Source: Planctomycetota bacterium (GTDB taxonomy: Bacteria > Planctomycetota > UBA8108 > UBA1146 > JAJFFE01). From it: 64,000 nucleotides of DNA. The notes below the pieces were generated by a model. That model was given only the letters and a program-made list of their open reading frames with translations. It did no database searches and was not told the origin of the DNA. The position numbers were made by a program, and so were the translations under genes. Every line of letters starts with the position of its first letter. The stretch's first letter is position 1. The DNA lies in assembly GCA_050246115.1 (NCBI GenBank), contig JBFWWP010000032.1, forward strand, positions 1,078 through 65,077, given 5' to 3'. Shown here in pieces: positions 2,568 through 64,000 of the stretch.

Positions 2568-2942
2568 TCGCCTTGCAATCATGACCGATCATGTTCGTTG
2601 ACGGGGAACCTCGGCGGTCGGAAGCGAGGCGAGGCGTCGCGGAGGAGTCGTGGAACGGCGAGTCTTAGCCTCAGCCTCGATGGCCCAAGTCAAGGCAAGC
2701 GGGAGCGTTGCTGGCCCTGGCGGGACGGCTCATCGGGGGGCATGGTGATCCAGGTTGCGGAGGTCGGGATTCGAGCGGCTTGAACTTCGGAAGACGCTTC
2801 TCCGAGTACGACATGATCGTATGCAGGTGCTTTTCGAGAAAGCAGATTGAGTGGAGGCCCACTTGGAGAGAATCTTGGGCCCGAGGCAAGCGCGGCGCGC
2901 GCTGGATTTGGGTCTAGAGTTGCGGCGTGAGGGAGATTCGCG

Positions 2943-3902: not shown

Positions 3903-4139
3903 GCCAGAGGCAAGCCCGCTTGGATTCGCTTTCGTCTGCCGGAACAGACCCGCTCGACCCCTCACTCCCCGTCCGCCACCCGGGAGGGGCAGGCCTCGCG
4001 TGGAAATCGGCTCCGTGGGGGACTTCGCACTCCCATCGGCTTCGCGCTGGGGCGGGCACCCCAACCGGCGCGCTGCCCTGGGTCGCTTCCGCCCTTGAGT
4101 TTCAGGCGGCGCGTTTCAGAATGCGGCGCGGGGGAATCC

Positions 4140-43862: not shown

Positions 43863-45293
43863 TCAGGTCTTCGCCAGCACTGCCCTTTGCGACGGCGCAT
43901 GACCGAGCGCCGAGCCGCGGTCCGTGAACGGCGGGCGCGAAGGTCCAGGGTCGACGTCGGTGCGGCCCTTCCGCTCCTGGATCAGCCGATCCAAGAGCGT
44001 CACCACGGCCTGCGACGCCAGTTCCATCTGCTCGAACCGTTGCTCCGCTTCCTCACGGCGGCCTTCGGTGTGGGCCTTGGCTGCCTCGCGACCGAATCGA
44101 TGGACCTGAGCGTGCGGCTCCGCGAGGGCTTGGAAGTCGGGATTGTGCACGAACCAAGAGTCACGAAGCGAGTCGTACCACTTGCCGAGCCGGCATTGGT
44201 GGTGATCGGCCAGTTCCTCGTAGCGCAGGTTCGTGCGGCCGACGAACAGCTCGGCGAGCCGCTTCTTCCAGATGAAGTGATCGGACTTGGCTCGGAAGAG
44301 GACGTAGTCGGGGATCTCCATCGCTTCGAGTAGCTTGAACTGTTCTTCGACGAGGCACTCCGTGGCTCCCACGACGGCGAGCGTTCGGTGGGTGCGGTGT
44401 CGATTGCGGCTCGAGAGTTCGGCCACGGTGGCGGTCCCGGATCCGATTTCCTCGACGGCTTGGGTCTGCTCGGACAGCATCGATGCGACCTGCGCCATGC
44501 GGGTGGACACGACGGAAGCGTCCTCGCTGATCCTCTGAACTTCCGCCTGCGCTGCGGCGGCAGCGGCCTTGCCGGCCTCCACCTCGCGGGTCACTTCGGA
44601 GACCGATTGGGATAGCGCGACGATCTCGGTGGTGACGACCTGAATGCGCTTGCGAATGTCCTCCGTCGCGGACGATGTCTGCTGTGCGAGCTTCTTGACT
44701 TCATCGGCGACGATGGCGAAGCCGGCTCCGTGCGCGCCCGCCCGCGCCGCTTCGATCGTCGCGTTGAGGGCGAGCAAGTTGGTCTGGCGAGCGATGGCGT
44801 CGATCGTGTCGACGATCCCCGAGATCTGGCGAGAAGCGCTCGAAAGCGTCTGCGCGCGAATCTCGACCATTGCGACCACGTCATTGAAGTGGTCCATGCG
44901 CTCGACGACGTCCTCCATTCTCGACACGCCTTCGCTCGCCGCATCTTTCGAGGCCGTGGCGAGGTCGGACGCCGACCTGCTGGCTTCGGTCAGGCTGCCG
45001 ATCGAGGCGGTGAGCTGTTCGATGGCGGCAGCCATGGCTTGGGTCCGTTGATCGGTCACTTCCAGGATGCTCGACATTTGAGCGACGGCAGTCATGGCCT
45101 CGCTCGCGTTCATGGAGAACCGTACGGTGCGATCCAGGCTGTCGCGCGCTTCTGCCGCGAGCGACAGTCCGAGTTCCCGAATGGCGCAGGAGAGTGGATC
45201 TTCGCCGGTCGGGAGGCACGAGAAGTCGCGGACCAGTAGAGACTGAGCGGCAGCGATCAACGGGTCGGGGTTGGTCATGGATGTCCTGATCAT
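43863..45293 (-). CDS. Soluble methyl-accepting chemotaxis protein with C-terminal CZB (chemoreceptor zinc-binding) domain
   Basis: MCP core [36 protein letters not shown] motif [12 protein letters not shown]...H at the C-terminus. No transmembrane helix. Start ATG 45293 (or 45278). Confidence 0.8.
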
Positions 45294-50213: not shown

Positions 50214-52166
50214 ATGTCACCCGAGTATCGATACCTACGATCTGACGCGCTCCCCGACCGCGTATCCCTCGAGGCTTGTGTGGAAACATGCGCCGAGCGG
50301 GCATGGCGGCTCGCCTACGCGCTGTTGCGCAGCCACGACGACGCGTTCGACGTGGTGCAGCAGGCGTGTCTCGTTGCCGCCCTCAAGCCCGGGCAGATCC
50401 CGCGTCCACCCGCCGATCCCTGGCCCTGGTTCAGTGTGGTCATTGCGAACGAGGCTCGCAACTCCCGGCGCAAGGCTCGGAGAAGTCCACTGTCGCTCGC
50501 GAGCGGTGAGAAAGGAGAGTCCATGGATGTCGTCGACCATCGCGGGGTGGATCCAACGGACGCACTCGCCGTCGAGGACTCGCACCGCGCGCTGTGGCGA
50601 GAGATCGATGCGCTCCCTGAGCCGGAGCGCACGGCGTTGGTGCTCACCCGTATCGGCGGCCTCAGCCATGAAGCCGTTGCCCGCTCGGTCGGAGTGCCGC
50701 GTCAAACGCTGACGTCTCAGATCGCGCGCGCGATGGAGCGTCTGCGCGCTCGACTGCGGCGGGAGGATCCCGCGATTCTTGCGCAAATGGCGCTCTTGCC
50801 GGTGGCGCTCCCCGACCGCGGTTGGTCCGCGGCGATCGCCGCCTGGAAGACCACGGCTTCGGCTGGTCTGGCTGCGAAAGCGGCCGCCGGCACCATGACC
50901 CTAGGAGGTATCATGACACTCAGCAAGCCAACGCTGGCAGCGGCGATTTCGGTGGCACTTGGCGTCGGCTTGACCACGGGCTACTTCGCGGGCGATCACC
51001 GGCCGACTGCGCTGCGGGGAGTCGAGGAACGAGCCCAAAGTGAGCACGCAGCGATCGCGACGCTCGCAGACGCACCTGCGGCCCTACGACCGGTGATCGA
51101 CGCAGCCATCGCGGAGGCCTGCGCGACGACCTCCGCCCGTGTCCGCGAGTCGTTCGACTCCGAGCTTGCGGCCCTTCGCGCCCAGCACGAATCCGTGGTC
51201 GCCGAGCGCGACGCGCTCCGCGGCCAACTGGCTGAACTCGAAACCCCGAGTGACCCCGCAGGCCCGACCTTCACCTTCGGCGAAGGCGGACAGCTCCCGG
51301 AGGTGGCGCAGGCGAACTGGGCGGAGATGGCAGAGGCCTCCCACATCGTCGCTGGCGCGATCAAGGACATGGTCGCCTACCAAGATCGCGGCGAACCGGT
51401 CCCGACGAGCGTCGGCATTGCGATGCAGGAGAACGTCGAGAAGATGCGCAAGTACGAGTATCGCGTCTTCCAGAAGCTCCCATCCGAGGCCCGGTTCAAC
51501 GGCGAGTTCACGCACCCGATCTCGGTCACCAACCTGCTCGCAGCCGAGCTGACGCGTTCCGGGCTGCCGCTCACCGCCCCGCAGGTCGAGGCCATCAGCC
51601 GAGTCGGGGAGCAGTACGAGCAAGACGCCGCGCGCTACCGCGACAACTACCCGCCCGACACGCTTCGAGTGCGCAGGATCCTCGACGAGTACCTGCTCAA
51701 GAGCGACTTCACCGAGGCGGTCTACGAGGTGCTCACTCGTGAGCAACGACAGATCATCATCGATCCGGCGACGAACCGCATCGCGTTCCTCGATCTCTAC
51801 TGCCCCTCGCTGATGATCATCCACACGTCGCCGATCCTCCAGGGTGCGACGCCCGAGGAGTTGAAGACCAAGCTGGGGCAACTCGTGAGCGCTCGCTACT
51901 CGTTGGCCGACGCCGAAGGGGTCTGGCTCGAAGGGCTACTCCAAAACTGGCGCGCCCGCGTAGCCCCGATCCTGCACGAGGTTCCACCCCATCGCGTCCG
52001 CTACTACACTTTCGAAGAGAGCGTGATCGCCGGACACGCCACAGTGGAGCTACTGACCGAGCTACTCGGCCACGCGACCGACGACGCCGCGCGCGCCACG
52101 ATCCTGGATGAGGCTGGCTTCCTCATCCCGCGACTCGTCGCGGCGCCGACCGTCAGTCAAGGCTGA
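50214..52166 (+). CDS. ECF sigma factor fused to a transmembrane segment and a ~400-aa extracytoplasmic domain (second sigma/anti-sigma-like single polypeptide)
   Basis: Region 2 DDAFDVVQQACLVAAL...PWFSVVIANEARN. Region 4 ERTALVLTRIGGLSHEAVARSVGVPRQTLTSQIARAMERL. Hydrophobic segment LGGIMTLSKPTLAAAISVALGVGLTTGYF. Long helical C-terminal domain with no recognised family. Confidence 0.7.
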   Translation: MSPEYRYLRSDALPDRVSLEACVETCAERAWRLAYALLRSHDDAFDVVQQACLVAALKPGQIPRPPADPWPWFSVVIANEARNSRRKARRSPLSLASGEKGESMDVVDHRGVDPTDALAVEDSHRALWREIDALPEPERTALVLTRIGGLSHEAVARSVGVPRQTLTSQIARAMERLRARLRREDPAILAQMALLPVALPDRGWSAAIAAWKTTASAGLAAKAAAGTMTLGGIMTLSKPTLAAAISVALGVGLTTGYFAGDHRPTALRGVEERAQSEHAAIATLADAPAALRPVIDAAIAEACATTSARVRESFDSELAALRAQHESVVAERDALRGQLAELETPSDPAGPTFTFGEGGQLPEVAQANWAEMAEASHIVAGAIKDMVAYQDRGEPVPTSVGIAMQENVEKMRKYEYRVFQKLPSEARFNGEFTHPISVTNLLAAELTRSGLPLTAPQVEAISRVGEQYEQDAARYRDNYPPDTLRVRRILDEYLLKSDFTEAVYEVLTREQRQIIIDPATNRIAFLDLYCPSLMIIHTSPILQGATPEELKTKLGQLVSARYSLADAEGVWLEGLLQNWRARVAPILHEVPPHRVRYYTFEESVIAGHATVELLTELLGHATDDAARATILDEAGFLIPRLVAAPTVSQG

Positions 52167-52292
52167 GCCCACGCTCGAGGCCCGGAGTTCCTGCAGACCC
52201 AAGCGGAGCTGCAGCGGTTGCGCGCCGATTTCGAGGAGCTCGTGCCGAGCGACGAGCGCGAGGCCCTGAAGCAAGCGCATGCCGCGCTTGCT

Positions 52293-53090: not shown

Positions 53091-53541
53091 GGCTACCTCC
53101 CAGCATGAGGAAGTCGTTCCACAACTTCATGGACTCGGCGAATCGCTCGGCCGGGCTCAGCAGGTACCAAGCGGACCACTCGTACCCGCACACGTCGGCG
53201 GGTATCCAATCGGGCTGAGTCCCCACCCAGAGTTTCCTTCCACTGGCGCTACGCTACGCAGATCGTTCCACCGGGCTCGAGGGTGGGCCCAGCGACGCGT
53301 GCTGGAACGCTCTCGGGCCCCAAAGCCCCAATGCGTTGAGTCGAGTCTACGCGCCTGCCCCCGCAGTTCTCAAGGCCCCGGCACGCGAGTTCAGGGGTTC
53401 GGCATCCTCTGGCCCGGCGAACATCGCGCTCGACGCGAACCTCCCGCGCGAACCTCCCGCCCGAGAGTACTCCGCCCAGTGTGCACGAACACCCCGCCGG
53501 GCCGGCCGCTCGAGACTCGTTTCACGAATCGACCCACTGCC

Positions 53542-53620
53542 TATCGGCGGCCTCAGCCATGAAGCTCGTTGCCCGCTCGGAGGTATCATGACACTCAGCG
53601 AGCCAACGCTCGCAGCGGCG
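53542..53620. other. Chimeric remnant of the 50214..52166 sigma-fusion gene: two non-adjacent segments joined
   Basis: tatcggcggcctcagccatgaagc...gcccgctcgg matches 50651-50690. It is joined directly to aggtatcatgacactcagc.agccaacgct.gcagcggcg, which matches about 50906-50945. Confidence 0.5.
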
Positions 53621-54235: not shown

Positions 54236-55240
54236 ATGGCTCCACAGTTCGTGGAGTTTAGCGGCGATCGGCATCTCGACATCGTCACTGCGACTTTCGA
54301 TGGTTCCGCGCACGTAGCTTTCGGAAGCGAAGGTGGGTTCCTCGCGCCCGAGCACATTCTCGACTCGAAAGGTCACCGGGTGTTGCTTGCGCAGTACTGG
54401 GACTATGAGCGCAAGGACTGGTTGGAGAACGCCAAGCAGCCCAAGGGACACTGCACCTCTGCCGTGGCGTTCGATTGGGACGGCGATGGCGACCTCGATC
54501 TGCTTCTCGGATCCTACGGTGATGGGCAACTCTATCGGCAGATGAACGAGGGCAAGGCCGGAGCCCCGCAGTTCACGGGCGTGAACCTGCCGATCTCCGC
54601 GGGGGGACAACCGCTACGCGTCGCAGGAGGCATCACGACCCCGCAGCTCGTCGACTGGAACGGCGACGGCCTCACCGACATCTTGTGTGGTGGTTTCGGC
54701 GACAGCTACGGCGACGGGCCCGGTGGGGGCGTCTGGGTCTACCTGAACTGCGGTGCGGCCAAGTCACCGAGCTTCGACGCACCGATCACGCTCATCCCAA
54801 CGAGTCCCAAGGGCGCGAAACAGCCGACCCGCCCCGACTCTGCCTTGTACGCACACGCAGTCGACTACGACGCCGACGGCGACCTGGACCTCATCGTCGG
54901 CGGATACAGCCACTGGAGTCCGCCCGCCCGATCGCTGAGTGAGGCCGAGCAAACGCGAGTGTTGGAACTCCAGCGCCAAATCGAGGGCGTAGAAGAGCGA
55001 GTCGCGAAGCTCTACGCCGCTGTCGAGAAAGGGCTCGAAGCCGCCACTCCGGAAGCGCAAAGCGCCGCGATCGACAAGCTCTTCGAAAGCCCGGAGTTCC
55101 TGGAGGCTCAAGCGGAGCTGCAGCGGCTGCACGCCGAACTCGACGGACTCGTGCCCAGCGACAAGCGCGAGGCCTTCGTCTGGTACTACGAGAGATCGAC
55201 CGCGAGCCAGTCGACGACGAAGACCACCGGTACCTTCTGA
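54236..55240 (+). CDS. FG-GAP/VCBS-repeat protein (C-terminal portion if the TGA at 54224 is a disruption)
   Basis: Repeats FDWDGDGDLDLLLGSYGDGQLY, VDWNGDGLTDILCGGFGDSYGDG, VDYDADGDLDLIVGGYSHW. Helical C-terminal tail. Stop TGA 55238-55240, immediately abutted by an IS fragment. Confidence 0.6.
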   Translation: MAPQFVEFSGDRHLDIVTATFDGSAHVAFGSEGGFLAPEHILDSKGHRVLLAQYWDYERKDWLENAKQPKGHCTSAVAFDWDGDGDLDLLLGSYGDGQLYRQMNEGKAGAPQFTGVNLPISAGGQPLRVAGGITTPQLVDWNGDGLTDILCGGFGDSYGDGPGGGVWVYLNCGAAKSPSFDAPITLIPTSPKGAKQPTRPDSALYAHAVDYDADGDLDLIVGGYSHWSPPARSLSEAEQTRVLELQRQIEGVEERVAKLYAAVEKGLEAATPEAQSAAIDKLFESPEFLEAQAELQRLHAELDGLVPSDKREAFVWYYERSTASQSTTKTTGTF

Positions 55241-55242
55241 GG

Positions 55243-55770
55243 ACCCCGGTGCCCACACGGTCTCCCACTGACCCTGGTGGCAGTTGAGGGCACGGGCGAC
55301 CTGGCTACCTGAGAACTGCATGAACTTGGGAAGGGTCTTTCCAGAGTACGAGACGACGAGGTGCAAGTGATTGCTCAAGACCTGGAAGGCGTGGACCCTG
55401 ACCGAGTAGCGCTCCGCCGCGACGGCGAGCAGATACAAGATGAGCTGGTTCACCTCCCGGCTCGGCCGAAGTCGATGCTGACGTTTCAAGACGCGTCGCG
55501 TCACCATGACCGTGCCGCTCGGCGGCAGCAGGCGTGGGGGTGTCGCCATGCGAACTCCTCTCACGGAGGATGTTCGCAATCCGCCAGCCGGGCTGTTATC
55601 AGCGACCCCGAAAGGCCGCAACTGCAGACTACCACCGCGATTGAACCTCCGACGTCAGGGAATCGTCGGCCCTGGGGCCAACGACCGAACCAGGACGAAG
55701 CACCGGAGGCGGTTGCCCGAGTGGTGGGGGGCGGGGCACGGGGATTTCTCTCGGGCGGGTGTTTCCCCCC
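55243..55770 (-). mobile_element. IS fragment: right-end sequence plus the 5' ~105 codons of the HUH transposase gene (55243..55558), truncated
   Basis: Near-identical to 57845..58391 of the complete copy. Homology begins exactly 2 bp after the FG-GAP gene stop and ends near gggcgggtgtttcccc. Confidence 0.75.
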
Positions 55771-55803
55771 AAAGGCCTAAAGGGCCCGGAGGACTGCCCC
55801 GAG

Positions 55804-56052
55804 ATGCTAAAGGTCATCGAAAGGCTAGAACTGGTGATTCGATTGCGCGAGTTGCGCGCAAGACTCAACTGCCGCAATGCACGAAACGCGGGGCATGCGG
55901 AAGCATGGGAGAACTATAGACTGGCACTTTTGTATTGTCGGTACAAAATCCTGACCGAGTGCTCGGAGCCACGCGCTCCCGGGCTTCCTGACCTGATTCC
56001 GCCGACGCCGATGGAGCCGCCACCAGACCCGCCGATCGACGAAGGAGGTTGA
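55804..56052 (+). CDS. Small hypothetical protein (83 aa), lower-GC cargo between IS copies
   Basis: ATG 55804 (MLKVIERLELVIRLRELRAR...). Stop overlaps the ATG of the next ORF. No known domain. Confidence 0.35.
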   Translation: MLKVIERLELVIRLRELRARLNCRNARNAGHAEAWENYRLALLYCRYKILTECSEPRAPGLPDLIPPTPMEPPPDPPIDEGG

Positions 56053-56771
56053 TGGATATCGAGTTGTTCCCTGGCGGCTTCAGTGAATGGCGTGAAGTTG
56101 TCTTCCGGACTCCGGACAGCGACCTGATTGACAAGTTGATCGACGCCGACCCTCGCCGGGCGCTTCGCTACTTTGCCGCCTGTCTTTCGCTGGCACGTGA
56201 ACTTGCGCAGTACGACGCGTTGGACGTACGTGCCGGCCTCTACTGCCTGGCGATTGAGAGTGACTATCTGCGGCTGTGGAAGAATCATCTCCTTCCGTTA
56301 GATGATCGCCTGTCTGCCGTTGCGGCCATGGGTGTTCTGTTCGAAGACTACTTTGCATTGCACTGTCAGCCGACGCATTCTCGTGAGACTGAGTTGGGTA
56401 AACAGCTAGAGAATCTCTCTGAGCCTTGGTGGGAGATGGACCGGCTGCCGGTCAGTAATATCGCCAGGGTGCCTGGAGCACTGGAGCTACTTGCAACCAA
56501 CTGGTGGGACGAAGTGCCCTTTCATCCCAAGAGAGACGACCACGCGTTCATTTCGGTTTTGAGGAGACTGCTTGCCAGGTTGCTCGGCAGTGACGCGCTG
56601 GTTTGTCAAGAGTCAGCGCTATACGGAATGTCGGAGAATGAAGACGTGTTGTCGGTGAGTTGGCGTAAGCGGCTTGTGGGAGCATATTACGCAAGGACAT
56701 CTGACTGCCATCCGCTGCGTACACTAACTGTCGAAACACTCGTACATCTGAATCATCTCGCTCCGGAGTAA
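56049..56771 (+). CDS. Hypothetical protein (240 aa), lower-GC cargo between IS copies
   Basis: GGAGG SD then TTG/ATG at 56049/56052. Helical and Trp-rich (WWEMDRLP, TNWWDEVPF). No recognised domain. GC clearly below the window average. Confidence 0.5.
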   Translation: MMDIELFPGGFSEWREVVFRTPDSDLIDKLIDADPRRALRYFAACLSLARELAQYDALDVRAGLYCLAIESDYLRLWKNHLLPLDDRLSAVAAMGVLFEDYFALHCQPTHSRETELGKQLENLSEPWWEMDRLPVSNIARVPGALELLATNWWDEVPFHPKRDDHAFISVLRRLLARLLGSDALVCQESALYGMSENEDVLSVSWRKRLVGAYYARTSDCHPLRTLTVETLVHLNHLAPE

Positions 56772-56841
56772 GGTGAGGTGTCGGCACGCGTGCGTCACGA
56801 GGAATTTTCTGAGCTTCGGTGAGGCGGGTCGAGGAGCATCC

Positions 56842-58391
56842 GGAGCATCCCGCCCGAAAGTAATCCGCTGAGTGAGCCCGGTAGCACGTTCGTGTCTTCC
56901 GCGAAGTGCGCCCTCGGTGTCGAGAACGGCATGATGAGTCCATCGCGACCGAGTCCTGGGCGTGCCAGTTGGCCTCGGTCGGTCGGTGAGGGGGCCGGTT
57001 GCTGAGTGGCGTGACCGTCGGCAATCGTCGTTCAGGCTGGCCCGATGGCGGGCGGTGTTGGCGAGTGTTGCTGGTGACGAGCGCCAACGACTTAGTGTTC
57101 AGCGATCTCTGGCACTCGGGGTCCGCGCCCACGAGAACCGAGTCGTGCCACAGACCTTCACGAGTGAGTCGGCGGGGGCTGCGAAGCGAGCCAAGAGTGC
57201 TGCCGCAGAGATCTCAAAGCCGTGTCGTGAGCGACGCACGTCAGGAGGGGGCTGGATCCTCGCAGCGCGCGCCGAGAAAGACGTGCATCCGGTATGTGCC
57301 ACTCGGGAAGACGACGGAGCGCTGGCCGGACACGAAGCGCGCGAGTGCATGTGCGTAACGGGCGAGGAACTCCTTGAGTCGTTGGATCGCCTCGAGGCGC
57401 GCCCAGCGATTGGAGGCCGCGATCCTCGGGTTGAGACCCCGCCGTGGTTCGCCGCCTCTTGGGTAGGAGTGCGGCGACTGCGCGAGTATGGCCTGGGCGC
57501 CGAGGAACCCCAGGCCCTTCGCTTTGCGATCTCGGCGGATCGTGCGCTCGCGCTCTCTGCAGTTGGCGATGAGTTGGCCCCGCGCTTCCTCCGCGGACAG
57601 CCCGGGGATGCGCGGCATCGAGGTCTCGAGCACCACCGACTCGGGCATGCCTCCCTCCGCGTCGAAGAAGAAGTCGGGACGGTCGACCTGCCAAGATCGT
57701 CGACCGATCTCATGCGCGAGAATCTTGACTCCTGGCCACTCCTTGGCGCTCCGCACGAGTCCGGCCGCGACGACGTTCGTCAGCACGTACAGCATGTACT
57801 TGAAGATCGTCGCTCGATCTCGGAGGAAGTCGAGTTTGTTGTAGGACCCCGGTGCCCACACGGTCTCCCACTGGCCCTGGTGGCAGTTGAGGGCCCGGGC
57901 GACCTGGCTACCTGAGAACTGCATGAACTTGGGGAGGGTCTTCCCAGAGTACGAGACGACGAGGTGCAAGTGGTTGCTCAAGACCTGGAAGGCGTGGACC
58001 CTGACCGAGTAGCGATCCGCCGCGACGGCGAGCAGATACAAGATGAGCTGGTTCACTTCCCGGCTCGGCCGAAGTCGATGCTGCCGTTTCAAGACGCGCC
58101 GCGTCACCATGACCGTGCCGCTCGGCGGCAGCAGACGTGGGGGTGTCGCCATGCGAACTCCTCTCTCGGAGGACGTTCGCAATCCGCCAGCCGGGCGGTC
58201 ATCAGCGACCCCGAAACGCCGCAACTGCGGAGTTCCACCGCGATTGAACCTCCGACGTCAAGGAATCGTCGGCCCTGGGCCTTCGTCGTCGAACGACCGA
58301 ACCAGGACGAAGCACCGGAGGCGGTTGCTCGAGTGGTGGGGGGCGGGGCACGGGGATTACTCTCGGGCGGGTGTTTCCCCGGTGTTTCCCC
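56842..58391 (-). mobile_element. Complete copy of a ~1.55 kb IS-like element encoding an HUH-type (IS200/IS605-like Y1) transposase; imperfect terminal repeats around a CCCGCCCGA core
   Basis: Left end GGAGCATCCCGCCCGAAAG is shared by the copies at 59563 and 63578. Right end ...CTCGGGCGGGTGTTTCCCC is shared with 55770. The reverse-complemented ends share CCCGCCCGA. Confidence 0.7.
57241..58152 (-). CDS. Transposase, HUH superfamily (IS200/IS605-like)
   Basis: GAGAGAGGAG SD then ATG 58152 (MATPPRLLPP). HUH-like motif VLSNHLHLVV. 304 aa. Same protein repeated (partial) at 55243..55558 and 59958..60252. Confidence 0.55.
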   Translation of the reverse strand: MATPPRLLPPSGTVMVTRRVLKRQHRLRPSREVNQLILYLLAVAADRYSVRVHAFQVLSNHLHLVVSYSGKTLPKFMQFSGSQVARALNCHQGQWETVWAPGSYNKLDFLRDRATIFKYMLYVLTNVVAAGLVRSAKEWPGVKILAHEIGRRSWQVDRPDFFFDAEGGMPESVVLETSMPRIPGLSAEEARGQLIANCRERERTIRRDRKAKGLGFLGAQAILAQSPHSYPRGGEPRRGLNPRIAASNRWARLEAIQRLKEFLARYAHALARFVSGQRSVVFPSGTYRMHVFLGARCEDPAPS

Positions 58392-58437
58392 AAAAGAGAG
58401 CCACTGGAACAAAGATTGGCGAACATGGTTAGAAGGC

Positions 58438-58695
58438 ATGGAGGTGCAACAGATTACGGAAGCGGACATAGACGATCAGCTGGCCAGAATGGAGAATGAC
58501 GCAAAGTACGCGGAGAAGCTGAAGCACGGCACGCCCGCCACCACGGTAGATGGAGGCAAAGGAGTCGGTTACAGGGAGTGGAAGAGTGACAAGGGCGGGA
58601 TTAAGACCCGCTGCAACAAGAACTTCCACGCAGGACTCGGAGTAGTCGACAAGAAGATGGGGAAGATGGGCAAGGCCCTCGGGCGTTGCGGATAA
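58438..58695 (+). CDS. Small basic hypothetical protein (85 aa), lower-GC cargo
   Basis: ATG 58438 (MEVQQITEADIDDQLARMEND...KTRCNKNFHAGLGVVDKKMGKMGKALGRCG). Lys/Gly-rich C-terminus. Coding-like codon usage. No domain recognised. Confidence 0.35.
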   Translation: MEVQQITEADIDDQLARMENDAKYAEKLKHGTPATTVDGGKGVGYREWKSDKGGIKTRCNKNFHAGLGVVDKKMGKMGKALGRCG

Positions 58696-58940
58696 CGGGA
58701 AAGCTCGGAGGTTTGCTTGGAGTAGTGCTTAGTGCAACGTCGATAGCGTCTGCTGCTACGGAGGGCGACATAGAAGGAGTAATGTTGGAGGCGACACCAG
58801 CGGGGTTGTTGCGGGACGTTGGGAACTACGTTAATGACGAGGTTGTCAGTGTGCTCCAGAGGGCCGTTTCGAAGGGCCCGGGAACAGCGTCGGGCTATGA
58901 TAAGGCCGGCCAGGATCTGAGTAAGCCAGAGGGATATTAG
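58686..58940 (+). CDS. Small hypothetical secreted-like protein (84 aa)
   Basis: MRITGKLGGLLGVVLSATSIASAATEG signal-like N-terminus. Overlaps the preceding ORF by 10 nt. Confidence 0.3.
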   Translation: MRITGKLGGLLGVVLSATSIASAATEGDIEGVMLEATPAGLLRDVGNYVNDEVVSVLQRAVSKGPGTASGYDKAGQDLSKPEGY

Positions 58941-58944
58941 ATCA

Positions 58945-59478
58945 ATGAGGAGCGAAGTGATTTTTAAGATTGACACGTGCCCGCCGGGCGGGGATTACGG
59001 GCATGAACTCATGAACGGATCTTCCTCATGGGATGGTAGCGTGTTCCGTTACGTGCGGTCGGGCCCGTATGTCCCGCCACTTTCGCTCGTCATCGGGACA
59101 GCAATAGGAACTCGTGAGTTCGTGAGCGCCTACGATCGAATGGAGGGGTGGACCCTCTTTGCGTACGCGGTCACCCCGGGGAAGGTGTACCGTGCGAATT
59201 GGCGAGAGTGGGGCGACAGGTGGAGGTACCCGTCGGACTTGCAGCCGGACCTTGAAGAGCCGGAAGACTACCATGAGCTGCCTGAGGATGCAGAAACGAG
59301 AGCGGCTTGCCCGGAGCTGTTCGTTCTTGACTTCAAGTTGAGCGAGTCGCCGCCCAAGTACGGGGGGTTCTTTCGGCGGTTCCCAATGGGGCGGATTTTC
59401 TGTACGCAGAAGGAGAAGGACTGGTTTGAGAACGAGTTTAACAGCGATGGCCTTTACCACTTCGTCGAAGTTGAGTGA
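58945..59478 (+). CDS. Hypothetical protein (177 aa), lower-GC cargo
   Basis: MRSEVIFKIDTCPPGGDYGHELMNGSSSWDGSVFRYV.... Acidic and Trp-rich. No known domain. Bounded downstream by IS fragment 59563. Confidence 0.45.
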   Translation: MRSEVIFKIDTCPPGGDYGHELMNGSSSWDGSVFRYVRSGPYVPPLSLVIGTAIGTREFVSAYDRMEGWTLFAYAVTPGKVYRANWREWGDRWRYPSDLQPDLEEPEDYHELPEDAETRAACPELFVLDFKLSESPPKYGGFFRRFPMGRIFCTQKEKDWFENEFNSDGLYHFVEVE

Positions 59479-59562
59479 GCCGTGTTGTCCCGTCATGTTG
59501 CACTACCAGGGGGCGTTGGTGCATGGTTGCTTCGGGGTCGGAAGTTGTTTATCCTACGAGAG

Positions 59563-60252
59563 GGAGCATCCCGCCCGAAAGTAATCCGCCGAGTGAGCCC
59601 GGTAGCACGTTCGTGTCTTCCGCGAAGTGCGGGCTCGGTGTCGAGAACGGCATGATGGGTCCATCGCGATCGAGTCCTGGGCGTGCCAGTTGGCCTCGGT
59701 CGGTCGGTGGGGGGGCCGGTTGCTGAGTGGCGTGACCGTCGGCAATCGTCGTTCAGGCTGGCCCGATGGCGGGCGGTGTTGGCGAGTGTTGCTGGTGACG
59801 AGCGCCAACGACTTGGTGTTCAGCGATCTCTGGCACTCGGGGTCCGCGCCCACGAGAACCGAGTCGTGCCACATTCACGAGTGAGTCGGCGGGGGCTGCG
59901 AAGCGAGCCAAGAGTGCTGCCGCAGAGATCTCAAAGCCGTGTCGTGAGCGACGCACGTCAGGAGGGGGCTGGATCCTCGCAGCGCGCGCCGAGAAAGACG
60001 TGCATCCGGTATGTACCACTCGGGAAGACGACGGAGCGCTGGCCGGACACGAAGCGCGCGAGTGCATGTGCGTAACGGGCGAGAAACTCCTTGAGTCGTT
60101 GGATCGCCTCGAGGCGCGCCCAGCGATTGGAGGCCGCGATCCTCGGGTTCAGGCCCCGCCGTGGTTCGCCGCCTCTTGGGTAGGAGTGCGGCGACTGCGC
60201 GAGTATGGCCTGGGCGCGGAGCAGATACACGATGAGCTGGTTCACTTCCCGG
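59563..60252 (-). mobile_element. IS fragment: left end plus 3' transposase segment with a ~0.5 kb internal deletion, truncated at 60252
   Basis: 59563..~60215 is near-identical to 56842..~57500 of the full copy, then jumps to the ...cagatacacgatgagctggttcacttcccgg segment (about 58028-58060 in the full copy). Confidence 0.75.
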
Positions 60253-60345
60253 CAGCTTGGGTCGCCGAGGATGTCGGTGGCTTCAGCGCGAGCGAAGGCC
60301 GACGTGGCCATCTCCGTCATCCGGTCCAACGCGCGCCGCCACTCG

Positions 60346-61284
60346 TCACGCGGTTCGTGCGGGCCGCTCCAGCGTTGCACCGCGGCGCGCCGCTCCTCCA
60401 CCTAGCCGCTGCACCTTCGGGTGGTGGAACAGCCGGGTGAAGGACGCCCGCGCCGGCGCACGCCAGGTGCGCAGGAACCGCTCGAGTTCGTTCAGGAAGC
60501 CGACCCCGCAGTTGTGGTCCGAGACCTCGTCGTGGGTCGATCTCGCCGTCGGCCGCTCGGTTCGGATGCGGAGGACCATGCTCGTGGCTCGTGGATGCGT
60601 GACGGCGGCATGCAGAAAGCGCCACGTGGCCTCCCGCTGCCGGCCCAACTCGTGCGCGGCGAGGGCGGCGATGAGATTCTGTTCCGGGTACAGCTCGCTC
60701 AGCCCTTTCGCCGCCTCGAAGGACTCGGCCCAGTTGCTGCGGTTCAGGTGAATCGTGGCTCGGTGAGCGGCCGCCGTGATGTCGTCGCCGTATCTCCTGT
60801 CCAGTCGGTCGCACAGATCGAGCGCCTCATCATCGCGCCCCGCGCGGGCCAGGGTGAGGGTCAGGTTGCGGAGGCCGCGCAGGAAGGGCCGTATCTCGAG
60901 TAGCGTCCAGTAGTGTTGCTTCGCGAGCCGGCTCGGGAACTGCTTGCGGCCCACCTCGATGGTGCGCCGGAAGTGCTCCTCCGCCGGTTCTAGTTGACCC
61001 CGGTCGAGCGCGATGAGTCCAAGGTAGTTGTACCCATTCGCGAATGCGCCGAAGCAGTCGAGGAGCAGGCGGAAGACCGACTGGGCCTCGTCCATGCGGC
61101 CTTCTCGGTAGAGATTGGCCGCCATCTCCTCGACCTCTGGCGGGACCCCGGATGGAGACAGGGTGTAGCTCCAGCCGAAAGCGTCGGCCAAGAACGGCGA
61201 GCCCTCCGCTCCGGTGCAGACCCGGACCCGCGTTTCGATGAGGTCGCGCAGGAATGCGAGCTCGTGGCGGTGCTCCTGGATCAC
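60346..61284 (-). CDS. TPR-like helical repeat protein (hypothetical)
   Basis: GTG start (MIQEHRHELAF). Repeats such as YNYLGLIALDRGQLEPAEEHFRRTIEV and AGRDDEALDLCDRL. The C-terminal ~60 aa are low-complexity and may be over-extended. Confidence 0.45.
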   Translation of the reverse strand: MIQEHRHELAFLRDLIETRVRVCTGAEGSPFLADAFGWSYTLSPSGVPPEVEEMAANLYREGRMDEAQSVFRLLLDCFGAFANGYNYLGLIALDRGQLEPAEEHFRRTIEVGRKQFPSRLAKQHYWTLLEIRPFLRGLRNLTLTLARAGRDDEALDLCDRLDRRYGDDITAAAHRATIHLNRSNWAESFEAAKGLSELYPEQNLIAALAAHELGRQREATWRFLHAAVTHPRATSMVLRIRTERPTARSTHDEVSDHNCGVGFLNELERFLRTWRAPARASFTRLFHHPKVQRLGGGAARRGATLERPARTA

Positions 61285-61626
61285 CTGCGCAGTGGGGGTT
61301 CGCCGTGGCGAGCTCGCGCGTGAACCCGATCAGGCGGTTTCGGAAGCCATTGGTCAGCTGGGCGCCCCTTGGCGGGTAGGTGTCCGGCAACGTGTCGAGC
61401 CCCTCCCTTTCGAGTTGTGTTTTTGGTTTGTGCGAACACAACATCAAAGTCAATGGGCCGAATCGGGAACTGTGCTCAGGACATTTCTGGACGTTCTTCC
61501 AGGGACCGGGGTCGCGAACCAGCGCCCACCGGACAGGATCGGACGGGATCGGGAGAACGGGCACTTTTGACACAAGAATGTTCTATTCACTGGACCTTTG
61601 GTGCGCTGAAGTATATTTTACTCAAC

Positions 61627-61941
61627 ATGACCAAGCGGACGGTTCCGGTCTTCCCCCAAGGGCAGCGCCAGCTCGAGCAGCTCGGGGAACGGCTGCGGCT
61701 GGCGCGGCTGCGGCGGCGTCTGACCCAGGCCATCGTGGCGGCGCGGGTCGGGGTGTCGAAGCAGACGCTCGGCAAGCTAGAAGCGGGGAACGCCTCGACG
61801 AGCCTCGCGACGCTCGTACGGCTCCTGGGTGTGCTCGGCCTCGCCGAGGACCTCGACCGCCTCGCTGCGGACGACGAACTCGGGCGGCGCCTCCAGGACC
61901 TCGAGCAGAAGGCCCCGCCCCGGGGCAAGGCGAAGCCGTGA
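61627..61941 (+). CDS. hipB: HipB-like XRE-family HTH antitoxin
   Basis: LRLARLRRRLTQAIVAARVGVSKQTLGKLEAGNASTSLATLVRLLGVLGL is a Cro/C1-type HTH. AT-rich TTGACA-containing promoter-like stretch upstream. Stop overlaps the hipA GTG start. Confidence 0.7.
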   Translation: MTKRTVPVFPQGQRQLEQLGERLRLARLRRRLTQAIVAARVGVSKQTLGKLEAGNASTSLATLVRLLGVLGLAEDLDRLAADDELGRRLQDLEQKAPPRGKAKP

Positions 61942-63185
61942 TCGAGCGCGTCGAGGTCTGGATCGACGACGAGCTCGCGGGCGAAGGCCCCGCGCGCGTC
62001 GGGGAGCTGCGGGCAGCCGGTGAGCGTGGCCGTATGGTGACGCGCTTCCGCTACGACTCGCGCTGGCTGGTGCGCGGCGCCGGCGGCTTCGCGATCGACC
62101 CGGAGTTGCCTCTGGGTGAGGGGGATTTCTTCCCCGGGGCCGGCTGCGCGCTCCATGGCGCCTTGCGGGACACATCCCCGGATCGCTGGGGGCGCAGGCT
62201 GATGGACCGCCGCGAGCGGGACGAGGCCACTCGGGAGCGCCGCCGCGCGCGCGCGCTGACGGAGTGGGACTACATGTTGGGCGTTCAGGACGCGGGCCGA
62301 CTGGGCGCCCTGCGGCTGCGCGACCCCGAATCCGGGTGCTGGCTCGATGAGCGGACGCCCGGGATTCCGCCGGTCGCGCGCCTCCGCCAGCTCGAGGCCG
62401 CCGCCGCCCGTATCGACGCGGATTCCACAGCGCCCCTCGATCCGGCGATCGCCAGCCTGATCCAGCCGGGAAGCAGCCTGGGCGGCGCGCGCCCCAAGGC
62501 GACCTTCCGGGAAAGCGACGGCTCCCTTTGGCTCGCCAAGTTCCCCTCGCGGGACGATCGTCTGGACGTTGGCGCCGCGGAGTATCTGCTGAACCAGCTC
62601 GCCCGCGCCTGCGACATCGAAGTCCCCCCCGCTTGGCACAAGGCGCTCGGCGGTCGCGGTCGCACCTTCTGCGTCCAGCGTTTCGATCGCCGAGGGTCCC
62701 GTAGGCGCATGTTCTGGTCGGCGATGACCCTGCTCGGCAAGTCTGACCGGGACGACGCAGGCTACCTCGACATCGCCGAAGCGTTGCAGAACCAGGCTGA
62801 CGCGAACACCGTCGTGCCCGATCTGCACCAGCTCTATCGCCGCGCCCTGTTCAACATTCTGGTCGGCAACCGTGACGACCACCTGCGCAACCACGGGTTC
62901 CTGCGTCAGCCCTCGGGCTGGTCTCTGGCGCCGGCGTTCGACTTGAACGTCGAGCTCGATCGGCTCGAACACTCCCTCTCCATCGACGAGTCCGACCACC
63001 GGCCGAGCCCCGAGAACCTGCGGGCTACCGCCGAACTCTACCGCCTGACCCCGGCCGCAGCCGCGCGCATCGAGGACGAATTGCGCGCTCGGCTCGCCAA
63101 TTGGCGCGCGATGGCGAAGAGCATCGGCATTCCTGGGAATGAGATCGATCTTCTCGACTCAGTGATCTTGCGGGCGGGGATCTGA
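61938..63185 (+). CDS. hipA: HipA-family serine/threonine kinase toxin
   Basis: N-terminal couple_hipA-like VEVWIDDELAGEG...RFRYDSRW. Catalytic motif VGNRDDHLRNHGFL. GTG start within the long 61380..63185 ORF. Confidence 0.75.
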   Translation: MIERVEVWIDDELAGEGPARVGELRAAGERGRMVTRFRYDSRWLVRGAGGFAIDPELPLGEGDFFPGAGCALHGALRDTSPDRWGRRLMDRRERDEATRERRRARALTEWDYMLGVQDAGRLGALRLRDPESGCWLDERTPGIPPVARLRQLEAAAARIDADSTAPLDPAIASLIQPGSSLGGARPKATFRESDGSLWLAKFPSRDDRLDVGAAEYLLNQLARACDIEVPPAWHKALGGRGRTFCVQRFDRRGSRRRMFWSAMTLLGKSDRDDAGYLDIAEALQNQADANTVVPDLHQLYRRALFNILVGNRDDHLRNHGFLRQPSGWSLAPAFDLNVELDRLEHSLSIDESDHRPSPENLRATAELYRLTPAAAARIEDELRARLANWRAMAKSIGIPGNEIDLLDSVILRAGI

Positions 63186-63392
63186 GCACCGAATGGGCCA
63201 CGCAGGATGCTCTTTCGTAACGATGACCCGCTGTCTCTCGGGCGTGGTGGCTTCGTTGGTCATGGCGTCGGCCAGCAGGAGCGAACCCGGTCTACTTGAT
63301 CTCGGATCGGCGGGGTCGCACGAGCCAGCCCGCGCACTTACGCAAGGTGGTCGAGAGCGAGCCGTGGGTGCGGGTTTGGCCTGGATAGTGGC

Positions 63393-63577
63393 TCACAGCA
63401 ACTGGGAGACGAAGGTCCTCGCCGGCACGGTGACGGGTCGCCCGGGTGCCGAGAAACAGTCGAGGTCGACGTAGTCTGCGTTCAGCACGACCTGGAACGG
63501 GAACGCAGCCCCGAGTTGCCGTTGGAAGTACTCGAGCGCTGGGGTGAGAGAGTCGTCGGTGATCTTCACTTCTACGG
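63393..63577 (-). pseudogene. 3' remnant of a gene whose upstream portion is replaced by an IS insertion
   Basis: The track ORF 63393..63668 reads out of the IS left end. Only ...PVEVKITDDSLTPALEYFQRQLGAAFPFQVVLNADYVDLDCF... is native sequence. Origin unknown. Confidence 0.3.
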
Positions 63578-64000
63578 GGAGCATCCCGCCCGAAAGTAAT
63601 CCGCCGAGTGAGCCCGGTAGCACGTTCGTGTCTTCCGCGAAGTGCGCCCTCGGTGTCGAGAACGGCATGATGGGTCGATCGCGATCGAGTCCTGGGCGTG
63701 CCAGTTGGCCTCGGTCGGTCGGTGGGGGGACCGGTTGCTGAGTGGCGTGACCGTCGGCAAGCGTAGTTCAGGCTGGCCCGATGGCGGGCGGTGTTGGCGA
63801 GTGTTGGTGACGGGCTCTAACGCCTTGATGTTCCGCGATCTCTAGCACTCGGAGTCCGCGCCCACGAGAACCGAGTCGGGCCACATTCACGAGTGAGTCG
63901 GCGGGGGCTGCGAAGCGAGCCAAGAGTGCTGCCGCAGAGATCTCAAAGCCGTGTCGTGAGCGACACACGTCAGGAGGGGCTGGATCCTCGCAGCGCGCGC
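63578..64000 (-). mobile_element. Fourth copy of the IS element (left end + 3' transposase region), running off the window end
   Basis: GGGGAGCATCCCGCCCGAAAGTAATCC... is near-identical to 56842.. and 59563... Carries small indels (e.g. tgttggtgacgggctctaacgcc) relative to the other copies. Confidence 0.75.

Follow-up and report, generated by a model that had tools for sequence, protein, structure and literature searches.

A probable TIRtron-type element: a RAYT-like predicted HUH transposase gene between inverted terminal repeats in a Planctomycetota genome

Units in which a RAYT-like single-tyrosine (Y1) HUH gene lies between terminal inverted repeats, without REP hairpins, were described by Di Nocera et al. 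in 2013 (PMC3733652), who named the units TIRtrons and the enzymes TIRYTs. Their repeats may occur as dimers or clusters, most carry the motif GGGGWSAS, and some members are duplicated within a genome. TIRYTs largely correspond to the TnpAY1 subclass 2.1 of Quentin et al. 2018 (PMC6006769), which a table in that paper equates with RAYT group 1 of Bertels et al. 2017 (PMC5581495). Proteins of subclass 2.1 have a W[EQ] motif, a C-terminal HTH (Bac_DnaA_C, HTH_23 or HTH_28) and a length of about 238 aa (PMC6006769).

We analyzed a 64,000-nt stretch of DNA from a Planctomycetota bacterium (the window), which contains one complete and three partial copies of an element, one solo end and one decayed gene fragment (Table 1). 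With a probability of about 0.75, we interpret it as an autonomous IS-like element of TIRtron type, consisting of a RAYT-like Y1 HUH gene between inverted repeats, with a C-terminal extension of the enzyme. Copies were traced by blastn of positions 56700-58500 against the window, together with a repeat search, and the four copies within 9 kb reported in a first-pass annotation were recovered to within 3 nt. Its complete copy was recovered too, a further tandem 11-mer reaching the end at 58391 that it had given. The left limit of this copy (copy 2) is fixed by copies 3 and 4 and its right limit by copy 1; beyond these points the flanks are unrelated. Because the transposase gene lies on the minus strand, the left end on the plus strand is the gene's 3′ end.

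Table 1. Positions of the element copies, their ends and the coding features within the window.
Feature	Coordinates	Strand	Basis
Related transposase gene, decayed fragment covering residues 44-76, with HxH remnant	2782..2880	-	tblastn
Solo end of a related element, GCGAACCTCCCGC twice, then CCGAGAGTACTCC	53435..53475	+	pattern search
Copy 1: gene-5′ end, leader, first 103 codons	55240..55768	-	blastn
Extra left-tip tandem copy GGAGCATCC (tip plus first two core bases)	56833..56841	+	exact 9-nt duplication
Copy 2: complete element, 1,539 bp	56842..58380	-	limits where copies 1, 3 and 4 lose match
Inverted repeat at gene's 3′ end: tip GGAGCAT, core CCCGCCCGAAAG, then TAATC	56842..56865	+	sequence comparison
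Transposase CDS, 303 aa plus stop	57241..58152	-	ORF list and translation
Conserved C-terminal region, residues 137-303 (~165 aa), with EPRRGLNPR and FPxGTY	57244..57744	-	family alignments
Predicted catalytic-tyrosine motif, Y122-V-L-T-N-V	57772..57789	-	20-sequence alignment; 4ER8 alignment
HUH motif, H-L-H-L-V-V (H61, H63)	57955..57972	-	20-sequence alignment; 4ER8 alignment
Hairpin TCCTC-CGAGA-GAGGA over Shine-Dalgarno, 5 nt before ATG	58158..58173	-	read from sequence
Inverted repeat at gene's 5′ end: tip GGGGAAACA, core CCCGCCCGAGAG, then TAATC	58355..58380	-	sequence comparison
Extra right-tip tandem copy, GGTGTTTCCCC on +, GGGGAAACACC on -	58381..58391	-	exact 11-nt duplication
Copy 3: gene-3′ end, last 88 codons, 35 nt of N-terminal coding	59563..60253	-	blastn
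Copy 4: gene-3′ end and downstream region	63578..64000	-	94% identical to 56842-57272 (blastn)

The partial copies differ in what they retain. Copy 1 is 94% identical to the segment 57843-58380 of copy 2 (blastn) and is truncated at an FG-GAP ORF, whose stop codon (55238-55240) shares its last base with the first base of the copy; the adjacency described earlier as lying within 2 bp is therefore real, and its exact form is a one-base overlap. Copy 3 matches 56842-57504 with 97.6% identity over 59563-60221 and lacks the gene-5′ end, while an additional 35 nt (60219-60253) match N-terminal coding sequence at 58030-58064, indicating an internal deletion. Copy 4 may be complete, since the window ends inside it. 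Synonymous and non-synonymous codon differences from copy 2 stand at 9:1 in copy 1 and 4:1 in copy 3; the transposase gene has been under purifying selection. The decayed fragment was found with an E value of 8e-5 at 48% identity, with stops around it in translation. The DNA between the copies is of low GC content. For the ORF that the first pass took to be a gene truncated at 63577, the sole homologue is a hypothetical protein of 63 aa, identical to it and encoded in a MAG of the same kind.

The ORF in which the first-pass annotation had seen the HLHLVV motif is the 303-aa CDS, with an N-terminus (MATPPR) shared with its homologues. Its homologues, which number over 300, are about 297 aa long and include one from a Planctomycetota MAG that is annotated 'transposase' (P0001; 78% identity). 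In an alignment of 20 sequences H61 and H63 are invariant, and they align with the HUH motif of E. coli TnpA-REP (PDB 4ER8). The Y and N of the tyrosine motif (family consensus YVLANP, window copy YVLTNV) are likewise invariant, and this motif aligns with YIYINP of 4ER8. A catalytic tyrosine had been anticipated downstream of the HUH motif, and Y122 lies 59 residues past the second His as the single conserved Tyr of the catalytic helix; a second conserved tyrosine, Y287, falls within the C-terminal FPxGTY. The W motif reads F-W-A-P. The transposase is thus predicted to be a Y1 HUH enzyme with the core H61, H63 and Y122. Its C-terminal region was modeled by AlphaFold with a pLDDT of about 80, gave no match at E <1 in a PDB fold search and had no Pfam match among 20 family members.

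Profile and structure searches bear on the clade of this enzyme. NCBIfam REP_Tyr_transpos (NF047646) matched with an E value of 2e-12 and 47 bits, under its curated cut-off of 80, while transpos_IS200 (NF033573) gave 5e-3 and 17 bits against a cut-off of 55, and Pfam Y1_Tnp gave 20 bits against a cut-off of 23. The best match in a PDB profile search was 4ER8 (E 4e-4); in Foldseek, 4ER8 and ISDra2 TnpA tied as best (both E 5e-6), with IS608 TnpA behind (ISDra2 and IS608 matches at E 5e-6 to 1e-4). Because REP_Tyr_transpos far outscores the IS200 profile, the tyrosine motif is of the Y---N(P) type and the best PDB match is 4ER8, the predicted enzyme probably groups with the RAYT/TnpA-REP clade and not with IS200/IS605. 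The earlier comparison with IS200/IS605 enzymes holds for the Y1 HUH core but probably not for the clade. No IS family label was found in the RefSeq and UniRef names of relatives, which read 'hypothetical protein', 'transposase' or 'Transposase IS200-like domain-containing protein'.

The ends of the element, which the first-pass annotation had described as resembling each other, are imperfect inverted repeats: GGAGCAT-CCCGCCCGAAAGTAATCC stands opposite GGGGAAACA-CCCGCCCGAGAGTAATCC, with a core match of 17/18. Both ends share the 12-nt core CCCGNCCSAGAG, which is neither palindromic nor self-complementary, and a 17-mer end pattern occurs six times in the window against 0.09 expected. In 57 of 67 related loci the core precedes the ATG by ~120-130 bp, and in 59 its inverted form follows the stop by ~220-270 bp; 56 have it at both ends, against a background expectation of 5% in one search window and 12% in the other. 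It is kept even at the ends of relatives from Myxococcota and Planctomycetota whose proteins are 42-49% identical to the window protein. Two features for which the first-pass annotation had suggested looking did not appear, namely target-site duplications (none at window copy 2, and none at four copies from MAG.18) and the subterminal hairpins typical of IS200/IS605 (none in the window copy, both ends of which folded no better than shuffles, z −1.0 to +0.9, with a best perfect stem of 4 bp). The 3′ ends of relatives showed no hairpin enrichment either (4% versus 2% in shuffles), and no common flanking sequence was seen in a small sample of five window ends and four MAG.18 copies.

These properties make it very unlikely that the element is a long but ordinary IS200/IS605 member that moves by IS608-type 'peel and paste' with subterminal hairpins on one strand. 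Such a member would share the Y1 HUH fold with its single catalytic Tyr, the significant Foldseek matches to ISDra2 and IS608 TnpA and the lack of target-site duplication, and 17 of 53 relatives have a hairpin motif, GTCCG..CGGAC, close to the 5′ end. However, the transpos_IS200 score is far below its cut-off, the tyrosine motif is Y---N(P) instead of Y---Q (class 2 rather than class 1; PMC6006769), and the protein is, as noted in the first pass, about twice the usual size (about 150 aa). Moreover, the element has genuine inverted repeats, no conserved flanking tetranucleotide in the small sample above and no tnpB, and the ends of the window copy lack hairpins beyond chance.

Both tips of copy 2 are duplicated in tandem. 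The right-end doublet of GGTGTTTCCCC (58370-58380 and 58381-58391) had been recognized in the first pass and is not present in copy 1; a matching left-end doublet of GGAGCATCC, spanning 56833-56850 and not found in copies 3 and 4, had been missed. The solo end repeats this tip-duplication pattern, and no transposase similarity was found beside it. In related loci, 40 of 56 have at least two same-orientation cores at an end (median spacing 33 nt), opposite orientation being rare. In the repeated 'stutter' unit, a 3-5-nt tip that is constant within a lineage is joined to the core, which continues inward for a variable 0-45 nt; tandem copies often extend outward from both ends, each beginning at the element tip and running inward, a pattern also seen in window copy 2, the solo end at 53435 and L082. 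Secondary gene fragments in related loci were co-oriented and anchored at the 3′ end in 6/6 cases, and 15 exact lineage-specific solo cores lie away from any gene.

Since target-site duplication is absent and end-anchored tandem duplications occur at both ends, it is improbable that the inverted repeats function in the way known from DDE elements. The related proposal that a conventional DDE-type element, mobilized in trans, owns the repeats and carries the HUH gene as a passenger is highly improbable. The ends do resemble ordinary imperfect inverted repeats, but the 12-nt core co-varies with the HUH gene and remains attached to it across the 42-49% identical relatives, and the 1.5-kb unit contains no second transposase ORF.

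Evidence of mobility comes from other genomes. MAG.18 has five copies, 99% identical over about 1,257 bp, and MFD05942.bin.3.140 has four at 96-99% identity; L001 is represented by two copies, and A. oryzisoli by eight diverged loci that are mutually 80-89% identical. Many homologues lie on contigs of 1-3 kb, as repeats do. The presence within one genome of four or five such copies, 96-99% identical and set in unrelated flanking DNA, indicates that the unit moves; neither an empty site nor an excision junction was found, and movement is therefore deduced from copy structure alone. The element belongs to a large family in which, by this reasoning, the transposase gene still moves as a unit with the conserved inverted ends that enclose it. 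The first-pass annotation had itself named a contrary case, a non-transposase protein within a segmental duplication lacking defined ends; what we observed are sharp ends, unrelated flanks and a predicted Y1 HUH enzyme.

The same copies bear on the possibility that the locus is a domesticated RAYT gene (a REPtron), that is, a stationary host gene among REP-like substrates whose extra copies arose by segmental duplication or recombination. The core domain is nearest TnpA-REP (E. coli YafM), short repeats cluster at both flanks as in REP/BIME arrays, and solo cores without a gene occur, both at 53435 and in the related loci. Nevertheless, this reading is unlikely: entire gene-plus-ends units recur in near-identical copies, whereas RAYT genes are single-copy, and the repeats mark the exact limits of the copies. 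Such repeats do not form palindromes with a GTAG foot, hairpins are enriched neither at the 3′ ends of relatives nor in the window copy, and a single solo end in 64 kb is far below the abundance of a large dispersed REP-like population. The protein is also twice as long as TnpA-REP. RAYT systems give the best sequence match to the catalytic core of the proposed mobile, TIRtron-type element, which has in common with them the Y---NP-type tyrosine motif, inverted flanking repeats and a tandem end-unit amplification that fits the nick, extend and rejoin scheme proposed for TnpA-REP/BIME by Ton-Hoang et al. (Fig. 7B, PMC3333891).

In a corresponding model for the element, the transposase would recognize tip-plus-core at each end, which the C-terminal region may bind as duplex DNA, and would nick just 5′ of the tip on the strand reading 5′-tip-core-3′, which is the top strand at one of the two ends and the bottom strand at the opposite one. 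Through Y122 the enzyme would remain bound to the 5′ phosphate while the flanking 3′-OH could prime displacement synthesis; if the displaced 5′ end, still linked to the enzyme, were rejoined at a variable distance to the newly made 3′ end, tandem copies that all start at the tip would result. Such a cycle would explain the 9-14-nt tip duplications in the subfamily of the window element, the 15-60-nt stutter arrays of relatives and possibly the one-ended partial copies. The position and polarity of the nick are deduced from duplication geometry alone; replication slippage in G+C-rich DNA could contribute to the duplications, and ordinary IS-adjacent deletions could be a source of one-ended copies. 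In full transposition, the copy that moves would presumably be single-stranded, which is the route of IS200/IS605 and has also been proposed for REP/BIME. Because each single strand carries the recognized motif at only one end, the IS608 scheme is not directly transferable.

One-ended partial copies of variable length and the low-GC DNA between them might also suggest a rolling-circle element of the IS91/ISCR/Helitron type, a reading we regard as extremely improbable. IS91/ISCR elements have a large two-Tyr Rep and ori/ter ends without inverted repeats, whereas the fold here is a small Y1 core rather than a Y2 Rep, the catalytic helix has a single conserved Tyr and inverted repeats form the ends.

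TIRYTs and TIRtrons are the closest described kind, and the combination of an HUH enzyme with inverted terminal repeats already has a precedent in them. What is new is therefore variation within the TIRtron kind, not a separate kind. The element is set apart by three features, namely the C-terminal region, the motif of its repeats and behavior that is plainly that of an IS. The core is CCCGNCCSAGAG, in contrast to GGGGWSAS; the latter is fitted at 7/8 positions by the gene-5′ tip GGGGAAAC, but neither by the opposite tip GGAGCATC nor by those of relatives. The window family has W-A and about 297-303 aa, no Pfam match to Bac_DnaA_C, HTH_23 or HTH_28 in 20 members, and 4-5 near-identical plus partial copies as opposed to the subclass 2.1 average of 1.9 copies at 49% identity, a separation drawn from Pfam matches, motif, length and copy number. 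Alignment with a subclass-2.1-like 250-aa protein from a Skermanella plasmid was confined to residues 3-139.

A further likeness concerns the leader. The ribosome-binding site of IS200 is sequestered in a hairpin, and that of the window element apparently is as well; this small hairpin may have a role in translation control. The same Shine-Dalgarno hairpin design precedes the ATG in L001, L082 and L083.

Comparison of the window with itself recovered, almost to the base, the one complete and three partial copies described in the first-pass annotation. That observation is confirmed as a whole, and the interpretation placed on it, an insertion sequence (IS) with an HUH-type transposase and imperfect terminal repeats, is supported with corrections. 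All four copies lie in the same orientation. The three left ends share a common first base (GGAGCATCC...) after unrelated flanks, while the two right ends both terminate in ...GGTGTTTCCCC with unrelated sequence beyond. Copy 3 carries an extra 35 nt that match a distant part of the complete copy (copy 2), indicating that it is internally deleted and has lost its other end. A 17-nt pattern describing the common end core has six matches in the window, where 0.09 would be expected. The sixth match is a solo end carrying a 13-nt tip duplication (GCGAACCTCCCGC twice, then CCGAGAGTACTCC); it adjoins no transposase sequence and derives from a related but different element. A tblastn search also located a decayed fragment of a related Y1 transposase gene, which covers residues 44-76 and retains an HxH remnant among stop codons. 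Synonymous and non-synonymous codon differences stand at 9:1 between copies 1 and 2 and at 4:1 between copies 2 and 3. The window copies thus descend from lineages in which the transposase gene was under purifying selection. For the ORF at 63393-63577, searches returned only the ORF's own protein and no Pfam match, and no Rfam family was found in the 53-64 kb region of the window at E <= 0.1.

Copies of the element and associated features in the window
Feature	Position (strand)	Match or basis
Complete copy (copy 2)	56842-58380	Self-comparison
Copy 1	55240-55768	94% match to 57843-58380
Copy 3	59563-60221	97.6% match to 56842-57504
Copy 3, extra 35 nt	60219-60253	Match to 58030-58064
Copy 4	63578-64000	94% match to 56842-57272; continues past window edge
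Transposase CDS, copy 2	57241-58152 (-)	303 aa
Hairpin over Shine-Dalgarno	58158-58173 (-)	TCCTC-CGAGA-GAGGA
Solo end	53435-53475 (+)	17-nt core pattern
Decayed Y1 gene fragment	2782-2880 (-)	tblastn

The predicted transposase starts with MATPPR, as do its homologues. The proposed HUH motif is present as H61-L-H63 and is followed 59 residues on by a predicted catalytic tyrosine in Y122-V-L-T-N. An alignment of 20 sequences, which share 41-78% identity with the window protein, shows no substitution at these His, Tyr, and Asn positions. Scores against curated models are weak but directional: NCBIfam REP_Tyr_transpos matches at E 2e-12 (47 bits against a cut-off of 80), NCBIfam transpos_IS200 at E 5e-3, and Pfam Y1_Tnp with 20 bits against a cut-off of 23. 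By family profile, the best solved relative is the E. coli RAYT enzyme TnpA-REP (4ER8), with ISDra2 TnpA second, and the alignment to 4ER8 places HUH on HUH and YVLANP on YIYINP. An AlphaFold model (pLDDT 84) gave a Foldseek tie between 4ER8 and ISDra2 TnpA (E 5e-6 each), with IS608 TnpA behind, and we treat the protein fold, as modeled, as established. These structural matches are confined to the first ~115-137 residues. Residues 137-303 show good conservation, with EPRRGLNPR and FPxGTY among the conserved stretches, and have no Pfam match in any of the 20 members and no fold match in a Foldseek search of the PDB; this C-terminal region may bind DNA. In a plasmid collection, matches were limited to three weak ones to the N-terminal part, each on a Skermanella plasmid. 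A 250-aa RAYT-like 'transposase' from a Skermanella plasmid, which bears the motif signature of subclass 2.1 of Quentin et al. (2018), aligns with residues 3-139 only. Directly before the transposase ATG, a hairpin covers the Shine-Dalgarno sequence. The three closest relatives (L001 ~3975-3995, L082 ~1990-2010, and L083 ~215-235) retain a hairpin of this design, which is probably a translational brake.

The transposase belongs to a large family. A word-indexed search returned more than 300 proteins of ~297 aa, many of them on contigs of 1-3 kb. When 1.84 billion cluster representatives were searched exhaustively with the family profile, 1,416 matched at E <= 1e-30; apart from a few fragments, nearly all of the best 150 cover close to the full profile. 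Scanning one genome per species gave 191 loci, mostly in Anaeromyxobacter and other Myxococcota and also in Planctomycetota. Single genomes can hold several discrete units, each made up of the gene with its flanks: five copies at 99% identity over ~1,257 bp in an Anaeromyxobacteraceae MAG (MAG.18), four at 96-99% in a second MAG, eight diverged copies in A. oryzisoli, and two copies 4 kb apart at the locus of the closest relative of the window element (78% protein identity). The element behaves as a bona fide multi-copy IS. An exact search of metagenomes for the left end CATCCCGCCCGAAAGTAATCCGC gave no match, and hence no further copies or empty sites, and a metagenome scan for close relatives of the transposase found none; with no empty site found, movement is deduced from copy structure. 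Public names for family members are 'transposase', 'hypothetical protein', 'RayT', 'putative transposase', and 'Transposase IS200-like domain-containing protein', none of which assigns an IS family.

Two of these loci have further features. In Anaeromyxobacter oryzisoli (L068, 940-5850), a full copy lies amid three partial copies of a different subfamily that are 78-83% identical to it; each partial copy terminates in its own 3' repeat, and one is an internal-deletion derivative comparable to window copy 3. At the right edge of the closest relative's locus (L001, from 8901-8912 onward), a group II intron reverse transcriptase gene (RVT_1, GIIM) adjoins the two element copies. The same contig carries an FG-GAP neighbor gene that is not orthologous to the FG-GAP gene of the window, the two being similar at repeat level only.

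The transposase gene lies on the minus strand, such that the left end of the element is the gene-3' end. In the window this end reads GGAGCAT-CCCGCCCGAAAG-TAATCC, and the gene-5' end, as reverse complement, reads GGGGAAACA-CCCGCCCGAGAG-TAATCC. Of 67 related loci, 57 have a 12-nt core, CCCGNCCSAGAG, 120-130 bp upstream of the ATG, and 59 have it inverted 220-270 bp downstream of the stop codon; 56 loci have it at both ends. Background predictions for the two positions are 5% and 12%. Frequencies so far above background indicate that the inverted repeats are a conserved property of the family rather than a chance likeness. Neither window copy 2 nor any of four MAG.18 copies is bordered by a target-site duplication: the duplicated 9-mer and 11-mer bordering copy 2, considered as a candidate, differ from each other and are copies of the element's own tips. 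No common flanking motif is evident in the small sample of five window ends and four MAG.18 copies.

Subterminal hairpins of the IS200/IS605 type, raised as a possibility in the first-pass annotation, were not borne out in the window copy, where neither strand forms hairpins beyond chance, folding is no better than that of shuffled sequences, and the best perfect stem at the ends is 4 bp. Among relatives, stems of at least 7 bp are enriched at the gene-5' end (32% versus 5% in shuffles) and show no enrichment at the gene-3' end (4% versus 2%). As the enrichment concerns relatives and the gene-5' end only, we dropped hairpins as a defining feature of the ends. The gene-5' stems of relatives often consist of a GCGGACC / GGTCCGC / GCGGACC triple, which occurs at 17 of the 53 distinct 5' ends and at no 3' end, and which the window element lacks. 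The triple lies 20-60 nt inside the gene-5' repeat (e.g., L005 2392-2425, L034, and L047), where two alternative hairpins are possible.

The reported duplication at the right end of copy 2 is real, consisting of an exact tandem of GGTGTTTCCCC at 58370-58391, and the left tip is likewise duplicated exactly (GGAGCATCC twice, 56833-56850). A 58%-identical relative carries GGACACATCCCGCC twice plus one longer unit. At least two same-orientation cores lie outside one or both ends at 40 of 56 loci; they number up to ten with a median spacing of 33 nt, and opposite-orientation cores are rare. Dissection of 91 units revealed the geometry of this stutter: a 3-5-nt tip that is constant per lineage, then the core, then an inward extension varying from 0 to 45 nt. 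Larger fragments follow a similar rule. All six secondary transposase fragments found beside a full copy (L032, L044, L059, and L068) are co-oriented with the main copy and retain the 3' end, with variable 5' truncation. Window copy 3 is of this 3'-anchored type, copy 4 may be another such partial copy, and copy 1 is the mirror case, anchored at its 5' end. Slippage and ordinary deletions are alternative sources of the duplications and partial copies. Units that all start at one outer point and reach inward to differing extents are the expected product of site-specific nicking at the tip, if displacement synthesis follows and the enzyme-linked 5' end is then rejoined; such a reaction would produce tip-anchored repeats. 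Nicking, extension, and rejoining in this order was proposed by Ton-Hoang et al. to explain how TnpA-REP amplifies BIMEs (PMC3333891, Fig. 7B). For the present element, the duplication geometry points to a nick 5' of the tip on the 5'-tip-core-3' strand, which at the two ends would fall on opposite strands; the duplications may have arisen by nicking, extension, and rejoining, and transposition of the whole element presumably proceeds through a single-strand intermediate.

Quentin et al. (2018) divided Y1 enzymes into three classes: class 1, IS200-like with Y---Q; class 2, RAYT-like with Y---NP and eight subclasses; and class 3, a small group, with typical IS features in subclass 1.1 only (PMC6006769). 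Their data set was collected from complete genomes by means of Pfam Y1_Tnp at E < 0.01 (PMC6006769). Y1_Tnp is matched weakly by 13 of 20 members of the present family, which, together with its occurrence mostly in recently sequenced soil genomes, may explain why it had gone undescribed. Unlike subclass 2.1, the present protein lacks an HTH or DnaA_C tail, has W-A rather than W-E/Q as its W motif, is ~300 aa long, and is flanked by a different repeat core. Bertels et al. (2017) found RAYT group 1 to be the most IS-like among groups 1-5, with near-identical duplicates in 6%; the duplicate share is higher in group 6, but that group clusters within IS200 (PMC5581495). Di Nocera et al. (2013) described RAYT-like genes between inverted repeats, naming the enzymes TIRYTs and the units TIRtrons, whose repeats mostly contain a GGGGWSAS motif and in some cases form dimers or clusters (PMC3733652). 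The present element works alike and is best filed beside these units, as an IS-like TIRtron with a RAYT-like Y1 HUH transposase. On the criteria tested, it belongs neither to IS200/IS605 nor to the REPtrons.

The usual picture of RAYT-type tyrosine transposases is one of domesticated, single-copy genes serving REP sequences alone. The boldest reading, to which we assign slightly less than even odds (about 0.45), is that the window element is the first recognized member of a large unclassified IS family of at least ~1,400 protein clusters (50% identity), found mainly in Myxococcota and Planctomycetota from soil. On this reading, the family's Y1 HUH enzyme, of RAYT type and with a novel C-terminal DNA-recognition domain, would mobilize the gene that encodes it as a unit bounded by inverted repeats without hairpins, nicking one strand at one end and the opposite strand at the other. 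The duplications anchored at the ends, which range from tip repeats of 9 nt to one-ended copies of 700 nt, would be the genomic record of nicking, extension, and rejoining. If so, the family would be the free-living counterpart of domesticated RAYTs and a natural test bed for REP/BIME array amplification. A large sister family still transposing as a gene-plus-ends unit would offer a comparison point for how RAYT domestication happened, and the tip-anchored tandem repeats, as sequence-level traces, would open the proposed nick-extend-rejoin amplification of REP/BIME arrays to testing. The C-terminal region is a candidate new DNA-end-recognition domain on an HUH nuclease, an enzyme class that attracts interest for single-strand DNA tools. 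Given the public names and scores below the Pfam and NCBIfam cut-offs, the family's role in genome plasticity and assembly breaks is probably under-counted. An HUH enzyme with inverted repeats would not by itself astonish a specialist; family size, evident activity, and end-anchored duplications together bring an open mechanistic question within reach of direct tests.

The surroundings of the element cluster are themselves repetitive. Pieces of the ECF-sigma-domain gene region (50214-52166) recur beside and inside the FG-GAP gene at 87-97% identity (52180-52265 versus 55089-55174; 50651-50688 and 50901-50945 versus 53542-53620), which suggests an older segmental duplication or recombination adjoining the cluster. 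Two blocks situated exactly between consecutive copies (55770-56841 and 58392-59562) have a G+C content of 55-58% versus ~66%, and have the appearance of foreign DNA at an insertion hot spot or of sequence that moved together with the element. An ORF that by eye resembles an XRE-like HTH protein overlaps or precedes a HipA_C-domain kinase gene (E 6e-44) between copies 3 and 4 (61369-63185, plus strand), the two forming a putative hipBA-like toxin-antitoxin pair. Elsewhere in the window, diverged direct repeats of 74-76% identity (23566-23806 versus 23926-24166; 22903-23021 versus 44677-44795) are unrelated to the element.
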